Under the pieces are notes generated by a model. It was not told where the DNA came from and made no database searches. It was given only the letters and a program-made list of their open reading frames with translations. Shown piece after piece: positions 10,356-39,343 of a stretch of 64,000 nt of DNA (positions within the stretch are counted from its first letter, which is position 1; every line of letters starts with the position of its first letter). The DNA lies in the NCBI GenBank assembly GCA_963695855.1, contig CAVOHZ010000010.1, positions 128,001-192,000 on the forward strand, read 5' to 3'. Position numbers and translations under genes: made by a program. The DNA comes from an uncultured Nitrososphaerales archaeon (GTDB lineage: Archaea > Thermoproteota > Nitrososphaeria > Nitrososphaerales > Nitrososphaeraceae).

Positions 10356-12449
10356 TTAAGGACCAAAGGAGTTGTTGTATACAATTCCAATTGATGGAAA
10401 TAAGCCGTTATTCATCAAACTGGTAATTTCTGCATTGGTGAGAGCCCTGTTCCAGACACCAACCTGATCCAGTTGACCTACAAAAGCGTCTTGTCCGAGA
10501 GACTGGGCATTTTCTGCTATCCTCAATGGCTGCGTTCCCATGTTGTCTGGATTGGTTGAAGTAGATAGTGTTCCTATCTGTGCACCATCAACAAATAGCC
10601 TAACAATATTATTTGCATTATCAAATGTTACCACTGCATGATGCCATTTGCCATCATTGTAAGTACTCGTGGATGTTATCCATTTGTTTGAACCGCCTGT
10701 AGTCTCAAAGCCTCCGACCAATCTCTCAGATGAGTCTAACCATATTCCATAGTTAAGGTTATTACCTGCACTTTCCGGTCCAAGACCTCCCTTGTTCACC
10801 TCCATCCCTTTTCCAACGAAGTTGGCTGTTGTTTTGAACCAAGTTGCAACAGTAAACGATGATAAATGAAGTTTCTGAGTATCAGGAACATCTATTCTAT
10901 CTGACCCTGTTGTGGTAAAGAATGGTTCGTAGTGATATCCAATAGCCTGCTGACAATCTGAATCTGCTGCATCTTTAGACCCATCACGGTCGTCATCCAG
11001 TCCATTATTGCATATCTCCTGTACTGCGGGACAATCCGTATCTTCTGCATCTATCTTTCCATCACCATCGTTATCTTTTGCGTCGTTACATACTTCTGGA
11101 TTAGAGGTAACAGAAGAATCAATATTTCTCACATATAGCAATCCTTCTGCAGAAGTGTCTTTATCACCAGTAAAGTATCCTCTACCTTGTCCATCACATA
11201 AGGTAGCTGGATTTGTTCCCAAATTCTTAATTGTATTTAATACAACGGAAGGAGACGTGCCTGGATGTGATGAAAGGTAAAGTGCAACAGATCCAGTTAC
11301 ATGTGGTGTAGCCATACTTGTTCCACTGAGAGTTGCATAGCTGGATTTATAGGTAGAATAGATATTTACACCTGGAGCTGCCATATCTACTACATTTCCA
11401 TAGTTACTAAATGATGCGAACGAATCATCTTTACCATAGTTTGAAGAACCTCCCAATCCACCGCATTTGCCATCTGTATCTACAATTGCTGAAACTGCAA
11501 TAACATTGGGATGATTTGCAGGTGAAAATGAAGAAGCATTTTTGCCGTCATTTCCTGCCGCAACCACAAATGTAACACCAGCGTTGACTGCTGCATTAAT
11601 AGCCGTATTCAATGCAGATGATGTACATTGACAACCCAGGCTCAGATTAACGACTTCGATTTGATCCGCGTTTGCAGTAACATAATCTATTGCTGAAATA
11701 AGAGATGATATTGAACCGGATCCGCTGTCATCTAGAACCTTCAAATTCCATAATCGTGCTCCAGGTGCTACCCCTACAACTCCAACAGTGTTATCCTTTG
11801 CAGCTGCAGTTCCAGCTACATGAGTTCCATGACCATTTCCATCGGTGGCAAGATATGAGGTTCCGCTGAAGTCCTTATTTATAAAAATATTCAAATCCTG
11901 GTGATTGTATATTCCAGTATCAAGTATTGCTATATCTACATTGACACTTCCAGACCCATCCCCAGATCTGGTGAAACTTTGATCTGCATCAATTCTGTTT
12001 ATACCCGTTGGTAATGTTTGAGCAAATGATTGAATCTTTTGATCCTGCTCTACGTACTTTACATTCGGATCTGCTCTTATTTTATCAAGCTCTGATTGGG
12101 TATTAATTTTAACGACTGATGCTTTAATGGAATTTTGAAAAATATTTAAAATATCAAGATCTTTAAAAGTGCTTTTTTCTATTTTTTTTACTAGCTGATT
12201 TATTAGGTAATTGGGGTTCTTGACATCGTCCTTGAAAACTACAATGTACTGGTTTGGAATTTTGGGGTCGCTAAACGTGTCTACTTGTTGTTTTACTATG
12301 TTGTCATCGTTTACAGCAGAAGGTAATGATAATAATGATGATGACGTTTGTCCATAGATTTCGTTCGAAATGGACGGAAGTGAAAAACAAGATGCAAAAT
12401 AAATCACCGATATCATAGAATATACTGCAAGAGTATTTACTTTTTTCAA
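10356..12449 (-). CDS. Secreted S8 (subtilisin-like) serine peptidase with I9 propeptide, Cys/Asp repeats and LamG domain
   Basis: Catalytic ILDTG, HGTHVAG and GTSMATPHV; YIVVFK..VKYVEQD propeptide; C-terminal LamG. Confidence 0.92.
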   Translation of the reverse strand: MKKVNTLAVYSMISVIYFASCFSLPSISNEIYGQTSSSLLSLPSAVNDDNIVKQQVDTFSDPKIPNQYIVVFKDDVKNPNYLINQLVKKIEKSTFKDLDILNIFQNSIKASVVKINTQSELDKIRADPNVKYVEQDQKIQSFAQTLPTGINRIDADQSFTRSGDGSGSVNVDIAILDTGIYNHQDLNIFINKDFSGTSYLATDGNGHGTHVAGTAAAKDNTVGVVGVAPGARLWNLKVLDDSGSGSISSLISAIDYVTANADQIEVVNLSLGCQCTSSALNTAINAAVNAGVTFVVAAGNDGKNASSFSPANHPNVIAVSAIVDTDGKCGGLGGSSNYGKDDSFASFSNYGNVVDMAAPGVNIYSTYKSSYATLSGTSMATPHVTGSVALYLSSHPGTSPSVVLNTIKNLGTNPATLCDGQGRGYFTGDKDTSAEGLLYVRNIDSSVTSNPEVCNDAKDNDGDGKIDAEDTDCPAVQEICNNGLDDDRDGSKDAADSDCQQAIGYHYEPFFTTTGSDRIDVPDTQKLHLSSFTVATWFKTTANFVGKGMEVNKGGLGPESAGNNLNYGIWLDSSERLVGGFETTGGSNKWITSTSTYNDGKWHHAVVTFDNANNIVRLFVDGAQIGTLSTSTNPDNMGTQPLRIAENAQSLGQDAFVGQLDQVGVWNRALTNAEITSLMNNGLFPSIGIVYNNSFGP

Positions 12450-12725
12450 TATTTATTTGACTAAACTATAAATATATTAGCAATTCTCATATTTATTAGA
12501 AAAAATTTGTTATATTCTTTTTTTTATATAATATTATATAATTTAGTATTTTTTACTTTTAATATAACGTATATAGATGACTAGAACTCTTGAATGGTAT
12601 GTACGCTAGATTCATCATCACTAGAAAATATTATATTTAATATGTTTATTCTTCTGGCTCTGTAGGTGAAATGTTCGACAGAGCTAACATTCAAGAAGAA
12701 AGCCACTACCAATACTCTTGCAAAT

Positions 12726-13754
12726 ATGTATGCGGCATTAGATTTAGGACAGAAAAACATTCAGGCAGTATTGAAAAATAAAGATGGTAAGATTATAAAG
12801 GAAAATAAAATACAGCGTAATACCAAAACAATACTAGAATTTCTTGATAATAGTAACAAGAATCATAATAATATTGATATTGTAATGGAGTCTGGTTACA
12901 ACTATCAATATCTATATGATCTTTTACAAGATGAAGGTTATAATGTAAAAGTAGCACATCCACTAATGGTCAAGGCAATAGCATATGCTAAAGTCAAGAC
13001 AGATAAAGTAGATGCTAGAATATTAGCAGATCTACTAAGAATGGATATGATACCAGAATGTTATATACCTAATAAAGATATAAGAAATTTACGAGATCTA
13101 GTTAGACGCAGATACTATTTTGTCAGTATTCGAACAATGTTCAAAAACAAAGCACATGTTGAGATGAGTAAAAGATGGTTAGATGCTAATGTGACTAATA
13201 ATATAACAACAACAATGATTAAAAATGATCCATTTTCTAAAAAAGGAAAATGTCATTTACGTTCACTGGGAATACATGCATTAGATGATTGCCTTGATAC
13301 CATAGATTTTCTAGATAGAAAAATAAAAGAGTTGGATACAGAAATAAAGAAATTGGCAATAGAAGATAAATACTCTAAACATCTTATGACAATTCCAGGT
13401 ATATCTTACTATGCAGCTCTTCTAATATCAAGCGAGATAGCAGATATTAACAGGTTTCCAGACTATGAACATCTGTGTTCTTATGCTAGATTAGTACCTG
13501 GTACATATCAATCTGGAAATACATCATTCTCAAAAACAGACAAAAAACAAGGGAGCAAAATGCTAAACTGGATTATGGTACAGTGTACTCATACACATGT
13601 ACGTTATTGCCAATCATCGATAACAGTACATTACAACAAGATAAAGAATAGAAAGAGAAATAACAAAATTGCTATAATTGCAGCAGCAAGAAAATTAATG
13701 CGTGTGATATATGTTATGCTAAAGGAAGATCGTCCCTTTAGACTGGATGAATAA
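12726..13754 (+). CDS. IS110-family transposase/recombinase
   Basis: DEDD residues in ALDLG, VMESG and KTDKVDA; TIPGI; YQSG catalytic Ser; AAARKL. ATG at 12726 preferred over GTG at 12666. Confidence 0.95.
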   Translation: MYAALDLGQKNIQAVLKNKDGKIIKENKIQRNTKTILEFLDNSNKNHNNIDIVMESGYNYQYLYDLLQDEGYNVKVAHPLMVKAIAYAKVKTDKVDARILADLLRMDMIPECYIPNKDIRNLRDLVRRRYYFVSIRTMFKNKAHVEMSKRWLDANVTNNITTTMIKNDPFSKKGKCHLRSLGIHALDDCLDTIDFLDRKIKELDTEIKKLAIEDKYSKHLMTIPGISYYAALLISSEIADINRFPDYEHLCSYARLVPGTYQSGNTSFSKTDKKQGSKMLNWIMVQCTHTHVRYCQSSITVHYNKIKNRKRNNKIAIIAAARKLMRVIYVMLKEDRPFRLDE

Positions 13755-13766
13755 TAATATAGTATA

Positions 13767-13900
13767 GGACCTCTTGGTTTCTTGCATCGTCATATTGTTA
13801 TTATTATATGATAAGTATGATGGATGCCATCTGTAGGTTAGGTCTGGCTACTACTAGCGCAAAGCCACGGTGCACTATTGGTGCGTATGGGAGAATGCTA
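13767..13900 (+). ncRNA. Predicted bridge RNA (seekRNA) of the IS110 element
   Basis: Two stem/internal-loop/hairpin units; loop sequences TGGTTTCT, TCTGTAGGT and ATGGGAGAA match target and donor junctions. RNA ends approximate. Confidence 0.82.
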
Positions 13901-13986
13901 TTATTCATCAGTTAATCATATTAGGAACGAGTATTATATGAACATGGGAGAAACCATCATAGCTAGCAACATTCTACAGTTAATTA

Positions 13987-14988
13987 TTGAACAAACAACA
14001 ATCAAAATATGTTAGATTAGCAGATCAACTATTACGTATTCTCAAACATTGCAGAATTCCATTATATTTGCATAGAAAGAGCAACCACATTTACACAGTA
14101 TGGCAACACATAGTACTTGTTACAATAAGACAGTATGAAGGTAAGAGTTATCGAATGTTTACAGACTGGCTTGTTGAAGCATACTATTTGAGATTGTTTT
14201 TACAACTATCCAAAATACCACATTATACAACCTTACAAAAATTCACTGATAGAATCAACATCATGAAGCTTGGAAAGATAATCTCATCATTTATCCTCTT
14301 TACAGGTACAAGACACATATTTGCTGGAATAGATGCAACTGGATTCAAAATAACATATGCGTCAGAATATTATACGAATAGAGCCAAATTGAGAAGGAAG
14401 AAATATGCTAAATTATCTATTGGTGCAGATGTTCTAAAACAGATAATCTGCAAGGTCAAGGTAAGACGAGCTCCAACAACAAGACATGACAATATGGATT
14501 TCAAACCTATTGTAACAAAAATATCAAAAATAAAACCATTATCGGTAGTTGTAGCGGATAAAGCATATGATAGCGAAGATAACCATGTACTTGTAAGAGA
14601 GAAACTACATGGATTCAGCATCATGCCTCCAAGATATGAACAAGTACCAGTATGGAAAACTCGTGGTAAATATAGAAAGGAGATGAAACGTGGATACAAC
14701 AAGATTCTATACAATCAAAGAAACAAGGATGAAACTATGGTATCTGTCATAAAAAGACTATTTGGGGAACATATCACATCCAAACTTGTGAGAATGCAAA
14801 ATAGAGAATTGACATTCAGATGTATAGCATACAATACTCACAGAATGGTGAAGTTGGTTGTTATAGTAATGGTTTCTACACAGCGATTCTTCTACAAATT
14901 CACATATATTCAGGAACTGATATTGATGTGCTTGAAGCAAACTCTCGTACTACGTCTTCAGTTTCTCTGTATGGTAAATGAAAGTTAA
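13987..14988 (+). CDS. IS5-family-like DDE transposase (frame reads through the right TIR)
   Basis: GIDATGF, VADKAYDSE and YNQRNKDETMVSVIKRLFG (Y-x2-R-x3-E-x6-K). Confidence 0.88.
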   Translation: MNKQQSKYVRLADQLLRILKHCRIPLYLHRKSNHIYTVWQHIVLVTIRQYEGKSYRMFTDWLVEAYYLRLFLQLSKIPHYTTLQKFTDRINIMKLGKIISSFILFTGTRHIFAGIDATGFKITYASEYYTNRAKLRRKKYAKLSIGADVLKQIICKVKVRRAPTTRHDNMDFKPIVTKISKIKPLSVVVADKAYDSEDNHVLVREKLHGFSIMPPRYEQVPVWKTRGKYRKEMKRGYNKILYNQRNKDETMVSVIKRLFGEHITSKLVRMQNRELTFRCIAYNTHRMVKLVVIVMVSTQRFFYKFTYIQELILMCLKQTLVLRLQFLCMVNES

Positions 14989-38149: not shown

Positions 38150-39343
38150 ATTGACAGTAGGATTATCACATTTATTTAGAGTGTGCATCATTGTAATATT
38201 ATTTTACTCTATTTCTTGCCATCAGTTAATTGTTATTATTTATTGTTTCAAGATTATGATGAATAACAATCTTTATTTTAAAGCATAATTTTTAAAATAA
38301 TACTGTTAGAAAGGTTTTTTTGGCCCTGTTAACTTAAGGATTAAAGTAGTTCTACATTCTACTTTTCTATTATGTTCTGTGCTCAATTTTTCATAGGTTT
38401 TTCGATTTATTTAATTAACTTTCCTTAAATCAACATCCATGAAAATCTATCTGTATGCTGGTTATCTTTTTTATCCTGTTTAGCCATATTTTGTTGCGTT
38501 TTTCTATCTATTAAGCATTGTTAACAATAGCCTCCGCTATATATGGCATCCTTGTTCTCTGATGTAGTCGTATTGTTGTTTTTGTTGTCTAATTATCTTT
38601 CTTTTTCTTGAGATCCAATCTTGTTCAGTCTCTCCAGTTTCTGTTCATATCTAGTCCTGTTCATGTATCTATACGATTGGTGTCTTGTTAGCATGTACCA
38701 TATTATAACAAGCACCTCCTTTGCTGTTGCAACTATTGCTTTCCCATGTCCCTTTCTCTGTTTGATTCTTTCATAGAATGTTCTCATGTGACGGTCATGT
38801 CTTACTGCGGATAATGAACACTGTACCAGTATCCATCTCAATAGTGGTGATCCCTGTTTGGTTATTCTACCTGTTTTTGTTTTTCCAGATGATTCTCTTG
38901 TTGATGGAGATAATCCTGCATAACTAACAAGTTTCCATGGTGTTGCAAATCTTTTGATATCCACTATTTCTGTTGATATCAGCATTGCAGAAAATACGTC
39001 TATTCCTGTCATGCTGAGAAGTATCTTTACATCTTGACTATCCTTCCATGCGTATTTTGCTATCTCTTTTGATACTATTTCTATCTGGTTATCTATCGAT
39101 TCTATGGATGTTAGTGTTGTATTCAGTATTATCCTGTCTATTGGTGAAACTGAGAGTGATTTTAGCCACTCAGTTCCCGATCTACCGAATATGTCTGTCA
39201 GCTCTGTTCTGTACTCATATTTGTCTAAAATAGCATGTACCTTGTTTGCAAGTTTTGTCTTGGTTCTAGACAAGACTATTCTATGTCTGACCAGACTTCT
39301 TTTTTCTCTGAATTCCTTTCTTTACAGGTACATATGACTCGTA

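Follow-up and report, generated by a model that had tools for sequence, protein, structure and literature searches.

The stretch of DNA analyzed here (G000:C10:128001-192000, 64,000 nt, hereafter the window) comes from the 3.55-Mb genome (~31% G+C) of a soil archaeon and contains, at positions 12666-13950, a 1285-bp insertion sequence of the IS110 family with an IS1111-like layout. We put the probability at about 0.9 that this is an active element with a DEDD/Ser recombinase that takes its guidance from a ~170-nt bridge (seek) RNA. The borders of the element, its AG core, its repeated independent insertion at one site, the conserved fold of the RNA region and the covariation between RNA guides and flanking DNA were each observed and are presented below, with window coordinates referring to the + strand unless stated otherwise. 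The nearest named relatives of the genome are Nitrososphaeraceae and Nitrososphaerales metagenome-assembled genomes (MAGs), with the nearest contigs named Nitrososphaeraceae, which agrees with the archaeal host proposed in a preliminary description of this DNA. An archaeal SSU model also gave a match (1490.8 bits), but in a control the model matched bacteria as well, and the archaeal origin is therefore taken mainly from the named relatives. A check against the sequence placed all strings and junctions named in that description at their coordinates.

Borders were set by comparing occupied junctions with empty sites. A DNA search of the genome recovered three full copies of the element, identical to one another at 1285/1285 positions. 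In the window copy the left junction reads TCTGT-AG-GTGAAATGTTC (12659-12676) and the right junction GAACATGGG-AG-AAACCA (13940-13956), and the same arrangement is found in 3/3 copies, with GGCTCTGT-AG followed by GTGAAATG on the left and CATGGG-AG followed by AAACCATCATAGC on the right. The element runs from GTGAAATG to CATGGGAG with the right-hand AG included. One AG is present at each junction, there is no longer target duplication, and the empty site is TCTGT-AG-AAACCA. The AG core predicted earlier is borne out by these three occupied copies and by empty IS5-family ends, two of which carry the exact 13-mer.

The two ends of the element differ in length, with 60 nt on the left (12666-12725) and 196 nt on the right. 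They carry a 6-bp subterminal inverted repeat, read from the sequence as ATGTTC (12671-12676) pairing with GAACAT (13940-13945), the corresponding repeat in relatives being ~6-8 bp (about 7 bp) with a one-base bulge. Outside the repeats lie terminal extensions of 7 nt on the left (AG+GTGAA) and 3 nt on the right (GGG), so that the right end at 13940-13950, as defined by the junction comparison, consists of GAACAT, GGG and the right copy of the AG core (13949-13950). The left end also contains the 8-mer AAAGCCAC (12702-12709), encoding codons K-A-T of an open GTG frame, and the same 8-mer recurs on the same strand at 13861-13868 within the RNA region; both copies are conserved family-wide. A pairing or covariation role for the two copies was considered and found unsupported, as one-sided changes (in the left ends of L063 and L078, and GAAGCCAC in several donor loops) occur without compensation.

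All three copies occupy the same base of an IS5-family left terminal repeat, which answers the concern that further copies might sit in unrelated sites. The insertion point is 10 bp inside the repeat, and the left flank is common to 3/3 copies, the flanks upstream of GGC being unrelated among the three. At this locus the outer 10 nt of the IS5 repeat (GGCTCTGTAG, 12656-12665) contain the left target TCTGT (12659-12663) and the left AG core copy (12664-12665), and the IS5 remainder (13951-14885) contains the right target AAACCA (13951-13956), a transposase open reading frame (ORF) from 13987 and a right terminal repeat that ends near 14885. The earlier naming of the target as an IS5-family left terminal repeat holds, given that the transposase matches NCBIfam NF033579 (IS5 family) at 161 bits and that the IS5 element has 8-bp target duplications, which differ from copy to copy (ATTCTTCT here). 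The IS5 element is ~945 bp long (~944 bp at this locus without the insert) and has terminal inverted repeats. Its transposase frame (13987-14988, +) overruns the right terminal repeat by ~100 nt before reaching a stop, and the first in-frame start is a TTG located 37 nt inside the element. The host IS5 copies of the three insertions are 86.2-89.4% identical pairwise and have two types of right repeat. Since the IS110 copies are identical and the host IS5 copies have diverged, the three insertions are separate and recent, that is, the IS110 element entered three diverged IS5 copies independently.

Three uninterrupted IS5 left ends in the genome read ggc[T/C]CTGTAG followed, beyond the insertion point, by AAACCATCATAGC, and are also written with AAACCATC and AAACCATCATAGCTAGCAAC in that position. 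The exact 13-mer empty site occurs twice genome-wide versus 0.13 expected, both times in IS5 left repeats, and the third uninterrupted left end departs from it at one base (CCTGT). Genome-wide, the site in the IS5 right repeats differs by a single mismatch (TGTGT-AG-AAACC or TCTGT-AG-AATCC), and these repeats are never occupied; the right repeat at this locus, TGTGTAGAAACC, is likewise one mismatch from the guide and unoccupied. The same target is occupied in a metagenomic relative, L059, that is 95% identical. In a check of 90 loci (L049-L138) for IS5 neighbors only L060 adjoins an IS5 gene, and L050 has a weak IS5 match that is not adjacent to its IS110 gene. Relatives away from IS5 target short sites such as CTTGAC-AG-AACC.

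The recombinase gene (12726-13754) encodes a protein of 342 aa, P0001, assigned from ORF, domain and alignment evidence. P0001 matches two domains of Pfam, DEDD_Tnp_IS110 (PF01548, E = 4.9e-24) and Transposase_20 (PF02371, E = 2.8e-18), and scores 218.3 bits against NCBIfam NF033542, "IS110 family RNA-guided transposase" (cut-off 140). The predicted catalytic residues are D6, E55, D93, D96 and S263-G264. Of these, D6, E55, D93 and S263 do not vary in an alignment of 25 homologues, where D96 is kept in 24/25. A profile of this alignment matches the only solved relatives, the recombinases IS621 (E = 1e-15) and ISCro4 (E = 3e-17), and the D, E, D..D and S-G of P0001 stand opposite their IS621 counterparts, listed as D11, E60, D102, D105 and S241 in PMC11208158. 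Collectively these results support the identification of P0001 as an IS110-family recombinase with intact DEDD and Ser residues, as had been proposed. Its description as compact fails, because 342 aa is an ordinary length in this family (343 positions in the NCBIfam model, 328 residues in the IS621 chain). The frame also stays open back to a GTG with which the element begins, and a start there would give 362 aa.

A protein search returned 722 homologues at E <= 1e-30, many of them 55-95% identical, and a metagenome scan with the homologue alignment gave 80 loci, from which about 55 with >50% protein identity were parsed; relatives at <50% identity (L050-L058, L124-L137) stand outside the guide analysis. 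The region 3' of the stop codon can be aligned throughout the relatives. Alignments A2 and A3 hold 41/43 available sequences, L069 (long insert) and L128 (truncated) being omitted. Across these 41 sequences 23 named pairs are paired in 99.0% of cells, with 10 pairs and 63 cells showing compensatory change. None of 500 shuffles reaches these values, and sliding the partners by 1-3 columns reduces pairing to 23-48%.

The basal stem P1 (helix 1) is formed by CTGGATGAATAAT (13743-13755), which overlaps the last codons and the stop of the recombinase gene, and ATTATTCATCAG (13900-13911); it has 8 pairs, 4 of them compensatory, with 99.1% of cells paired. Compensation here reaches into the coding sequence: in 12 sequences the last Asp codon has changed synonymously from GAT to GAC, and CCATCC has become CCGTCC to match. 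The target loop is enclosed by an outer stem (helix 2) in which GGACCT (13767-13772) pairs with AGGTCT (13840-13845), with three of its 4 pairs compensatory and pairing in 99.4% of cells, and contains an inner hairpin (helix 3; 13784-13827) with 4 pairs, 2 compensatory, that is expanded and AT-rich in this copy. In a relic, L004, this target-loop hairpin has undergone G-C to G-U and G-U to A-U changes along with one break. The donor loop has an outer stem (helix 4) of TAGC (13855) and GCTA (13897) in this copy and GC/GC in relatives, and a hairpin (helix 5; TGCAC...GTGCG, 13871-13885) with 5 pairs, one of which is represented by four pair types (UA 26, GC 9, AU 4, CG 2). In the scaffold common to the family, CTGGATGG in the last codons forms a basal stem with CCATCCAG, which lies ~130 nt further downstream; a first stem surrounds an internal loop and hairpin, and a second hairpin has AAAGCCAC-RR as its 5' flank and GCG-R-AT[R]GG-AG-NN-TGC as its 3' flank. 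A pairing suggested by RNAalifold between the CC of GCCAC and the GG of GGGAG was rejected because both are guide strands and invariant.

A covariance model built on this fold (131 positions, 21 pairs) matches the present copy over 13745-13910. In this genome it finds four places only, the three copies and the relic at C3:39453-39619, and it matches 9/151 family genomes including this one (8/150 others) in 4/18 genera. The comparison of the 3' non-coding region across homologues that had been suggested for this element has yielded both a fold and guide/flank covariation among relatives. A conserved promoter for the RNA was sought upstream, inside the gene, and none was seen, only a codon-periodic AT content; a sigma-70/terminator scan, uninformative for an archaeon, gave 12 promoter-like sites versus 10.7 expected and 0 terminators.

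Inside this constant scaffold lie strands that follow the flanking DNA. The right target guide is TGGTTT + CT (TGGTTTCT, 13775-13782), in which CT is the complement of the AG core and which can pair with the top strand of AG-AAACCA. The left target guide is TCTGT followed by the AG core and the handshake nucleotides GT (TCTGTAGGT, 13830-13838), GT being the dinucleotide with which the element begins. The 5' strand of the donor loop is AAAGCCAC (13861-13868), in which CAC (13866-13868) pairs with GTG at the left end of the element, and the 3' guide is ATGGG followed by AG and AA (ATGGGAGAA, 13887-13895), AA being the handshake to the right target. By genome-wide word frequencies the chances of finding the individual guide words in a 196-nt stretch are 0.0012, 0.0055 and 0.0014, and these values, with the covariation described next, exclude chance as the source of the matches.

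Comparison across relatives shows how far each guide extends. In 32 guide/flank pairs the left guide equals the five bases left of the element, with identity from the core outward of 31, 30, 31, 30 and 26 of 32, and identity stops sharply past 5 nt (4, 5 and 2 of 32 at the next positions). The total of 148/160 compares with a permuted mean of 69 (sd 6.3, maximum 99); as the relatives are kin, this and the other permutation figures given here overstate independence and are not probabilities. For the right guide we counted 42 non-identical guide/flank pairs out of 56 parsed loci of >50% protein identity, the remaining loci lacking a parsed guide or flank or being duplicates. Complementarity to the right flank is 40, 40, 40, 38, 29, 20 and 9 of 42 from the core outward, then 14/40, and the first six positions sum to 207/252 versus a permuted mean of 123.7 (sd 6.8, maximum 150, 10000 permutations). 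The preliminary description had given this guide 6 nt; its complementarity to the flank stands, and its reliable length is 4-5 nt. The relatives carry 21 different left and 17 different right guides, and the target-loop assignment made for this copy (3' side, 5 nt + AG + GT; 5' side, AG complement + right target) applies at the family level.

The 3' donor guide reads ATGGG or ATAGG and is the same as the element's final five bases in 45/47 rows, which were not dereplicated (30 G, 15 A and two misfits). The target-loop handshake is always GT, as are the first two bases of every element, so that both are invariant. The first nucleotide of the donor-loop handshake matches in 32/43 dereplicated rows versus a permuted mean of 25.1, a value reached by 7/10000 permutations and driven largely by one clade. 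In the present copy both loops fit the IS621 handshake rule, pairing with the other partner and not with their own. Almost no variation is seen in the 5' donor strand across the 41 sequences, and its CCAC can pair with GTGG in most relatives.

Held-out loci found with the covariance model include several that follow the guide rule. The guide of L143 fits at 6/6 positions, those of L151 and L153 at 5/6 on the right and 4/5 on the left, and that of L155 at 6/6 and 5/5.

On the strength of these comparisons we infer that the RNA is made, is bound by the recombinase and directs the reaction. It would extend over 13741-13911, beginning within the final codons of the gene and stopping ~40 nt short of the right end, with a basal stem that carries two internal loops. 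The target loop would bind both halves of the target, its 5' strand (TGGTTT-CT) pairing with the top strand of AG-AAACCA and its 3' strand (TCTGT-AG) with the bottom strand of TCTGT-AG. Of the donor-loop strands, ATGGG-AG on the 3' side would pair with the bottom strand of the right end of the element and CAC on the 5' side with the left-end GTG. A circular donor with the junction CATGGG-AG-GTGAAA would then recombine at the AG core with the target TCTGT-AG-AAACCA, the 2-nt handshake positions (GT in the target loop and AA in the donor loop) matching the other partner as in IS621.

Several results weigh against this interpretation. A single-sequence fold of 13750-13952 shows no thermodynamic signal (z = -0.06 on the + strand and -1.24 on the - strand), and an Rfam scan of 12400-14200 gave nothing at the gathering score, only four chance-level hits at E >= 6; it was for this lack of single-sequence and Rfam signal that relatives were gathered. 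The donor-loop outer stem shows no compensatory change in the 41-sequence alignment, so the TAGC/GCTA stem proposed earlier, its strings being present, is without covariation support. The 5' donor guide in this copy pairs over 3 nt only (CAC/GTG), as had been noticed before, the core being unpaired and GG following. The second donor-loop handshake nucleotide matches the right flank in 11/43, which is chance; the 2-nt donor handshake proposed for this copy fits here, and in the family its second position is at chance level. Kinship among the relatives inflates the apparent independence behind the permutation figures. The left flank of L079 matches its guide at 2/5 positions, held-out L145 fits at 4/6, and the right flanks of held-out L144 and L154 are unrelated to their guides. 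The last two share their right end with a neighboring element type and are therefore probably chimeras, with the misfit probably stemming from the chimeric ends. Lastly, eight exact 11-mer sites (5 + AG + 4) lie outside IS5 and are all unoccupied, meaning either that right-half positions 5-6 matter for this copy or that the sampling is small.

L144 and L154 belong, together with L155, to a cluster of related elements in a closed genome (G053:C1:713000-743000), where right ends and flanks look swapped between element types.

Alternative explanations can be weighed against the same data. If a composite IS5::IS110 unit were moved by the IS5 transposase, the common site would say nothing about IS110 targeting, and this accommodates the finding that 3/3 IS110 copies lie inside IS5 elements as well as the separate 8-bp target duplication at the IS5 ends of each composite. 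A composite would, however, carry its IS5 part at the same identity as its IS110 part, whereas the IS110 parts are identical and the host IS5 copies, with their two right-repeat types, are not; in addition, relatives with other guides occupy other sites. Hitch-hiking with IS5 fails on the lower likeness of the host copies, and we consider it extremely improbable. It is also conceivable that the protein picks the site in the manner of a Piv-like invertase or a classical site-specific recombinase, leaving the 3' RNA a structural or regulatory role only, for example as an mRNA 3' end. The subterminal inverted repeat would be available for reading by a protein, and a 5' donor guide that is nearly invariant and pairs over 3-4 nt only is what such a scheme might show. 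This is contradicted by loop positions that covary with the flanks at exactly 5 + 2 and 2 + 4-5 positions within a constant scaffold, and by proteins ~57-58% identical that have a common scaffold, different guides and different sites, which makes site choice by the protein very unlikely.

A further alternative accepts RNA guidance and holds that the element is a dead relic, its guide matches being historical and its movement over. Decayed related fragments in the genome (L004, L005/L013 and L006) and the two perfect 13-mer targets that are still empty would fit such a history, which three identical copies with intact ORFs and guides and conserved catalytic residues argue against; we regard it as improbable, if somewhat less so than the other two. 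An active, RNA-guided element remains the interpretation that we favor.

The fragments just mentioned show what decay has left. L004 (G000:C3:39402-39742, - strand) keeps the whole RNA region at 94% identity beside AG-AAACCT, L005/L013 (G000:C2:54946-55285) is a relic in which L013 keeps the left end beside CTCAGT-AG, and L006 (G000:C8:330970-331161) is a relic of a related element. In the window itself, 38668-39339 (-) (G000:C10:166668-167339) holds a decayed IS110-family gene fragment, ~35% identical to P0001 residues 110-339, with one internal TAA. At ~3720-3725 of L049, a Nitrososphaeraceae MAG contig, a 72%-identical IS110 gene ends at residue 240 and is fused to residue 107 of an IS5 transposase homologue; the fusion is a deletion across the RNA region and the IS5 left end, and the left flank is CTTTTT-AG, not CTCTGT-AG.

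The right end may have a further function. Among 39 GC-rich relatives, A/T makes up 0.54-0.97 of the bases between -30 and -23, counted from the right end (>=0.67 between -30 and -25), and few AT-rich columns flank this stretch. The interval -30 to -23 corresponds to the spacing of an archaeal TATA box for a start site just after the core. In the AT-rich present copy the box is ambiguous, as candidate outward TATA-like boxes within 13917-13939 are CATATTA (13917-13923, at -34 to -28) and TATTATAT (13932-13939, at -19 to -12). On the left, the GTG at the start of the element is in frame with the ATG (position 12726 here) in 31/31 distinct left ends, and the frame is open in 27/31, the four closed frames, interrupted by TGA, forming a single clade. 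The left ends measure 48, 51, 54 or 60 nt, each a multiple of three. A tentative model, which we think is somewhat unlikely to be correct, is that a TATA-like box in the right end, centered ~27 nt before the crossover, starts transcription at the first post-core base; in the circle this base would be the G of the in-frame GTG, giving a leaderless recombinase mRNA only or mainly from the circle. If this were true, the junction TATA box would be the archaeal counterpart of the bacterial split -35/-10 junction promoter, and, with the element integrated, transcription from this box would run outward into the gene for the IS5 transposase.

Two other features lie near the element or belong to the same family. 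Just upstream of it, at 10356-12449 (-), is a 697-aa ORF with the motifs GTHVAGT and SGTSMATPHV, which we take to be subtilisin-like. Outside the window, L037 and L039 (G000:C10:287355-289230 and 289420-291300) are identical inverted copies of another IS110-family element that is 37% identical to P0001, with a ~290-nt non-coding region upstream of the gene and a short one downstream. As this is the IS110-group layout, both layouts coexist in this genome.

The element extends the known IS110/IS1111 family and opens no new one. NCBI already labels the family RNA-guided, and archaeal IS110 homologues have been catalogued (n = 662; Vaysset et al. 2024), so that the understanding of how these systems work is unchanged. 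A literature search of incomplete coverage found no publication on the bridge RNA of an archaeal element. The analysis supplies an annotated candidate bridge/seekRNA for an IS110-family clade of ammonia-oxidizing archaea and their relatives, in the form of a scaffold and a covariance model, with exact lengths for the left guide (5 + AG) and the right guide (AG + 4-5) and natural retargeting over ~20 different guide sets. It is of use in archaeal genome annotation and offers orthologues for the engineering of recombinases, and it describes a case in which one mobile element specifically splits the terminal repeat of another. The IS1111 relatives IS4321 and IS5075 reportedly do much the same, targeting the Tn21 terminal repeats (Partridge & Hall 2003).

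By layout the element is IS1111-like, an assignment that we regard as provisional at the level of the subgroup. The IS1111-group elements with a seekRNA (ISEc11, ISPa11 and ISKpn4; Siddiquee et al. 2024, PMC11187229) likewise combine a DEDD recombinase with a long non-coding region downstream of the gene, have the same guide order with the top-strand-complementary guide 5' of the bottom-strand one, and have the same 7- and 3-bp terminal extensions if AG is counted on the left (AGGTGAA, GGG). Like them, the present element makes no target duplication beyond the core. It differs in its 6-bp subterminal repeat, versus 11-13 bp usual for IS1111, in its archaeal host, and in an outward promoter that, if real, is a TATA box lying wholly in the right end and not a junction-split -35/-10 pair.

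The IS621 and ISCro4 bridge recombinases (Durrant et al. 2024, PMC11208160; Hiraizumi et al. 2024, PMC11208158; PDB 8wt6, 9t56), belong to the same protein family with DEDD and Ser-Gly residues, and likewise have an RNA of two loops that carries a left and a right guide, together with a 2-nt core; their handshake positions match the non-cognate partner, as both loops of the present copy do. Their RNA is at the 5' end and their core is CT, whereas here the RNA region is at the 3' end with reversed guide order and the core is AG. In contrast to IS621 and ISCro4, the 5' donor guide of the archaeal element is minimal and leaves the core unpaired, and its basal stem makes use of the last codons of the recombinase gene.

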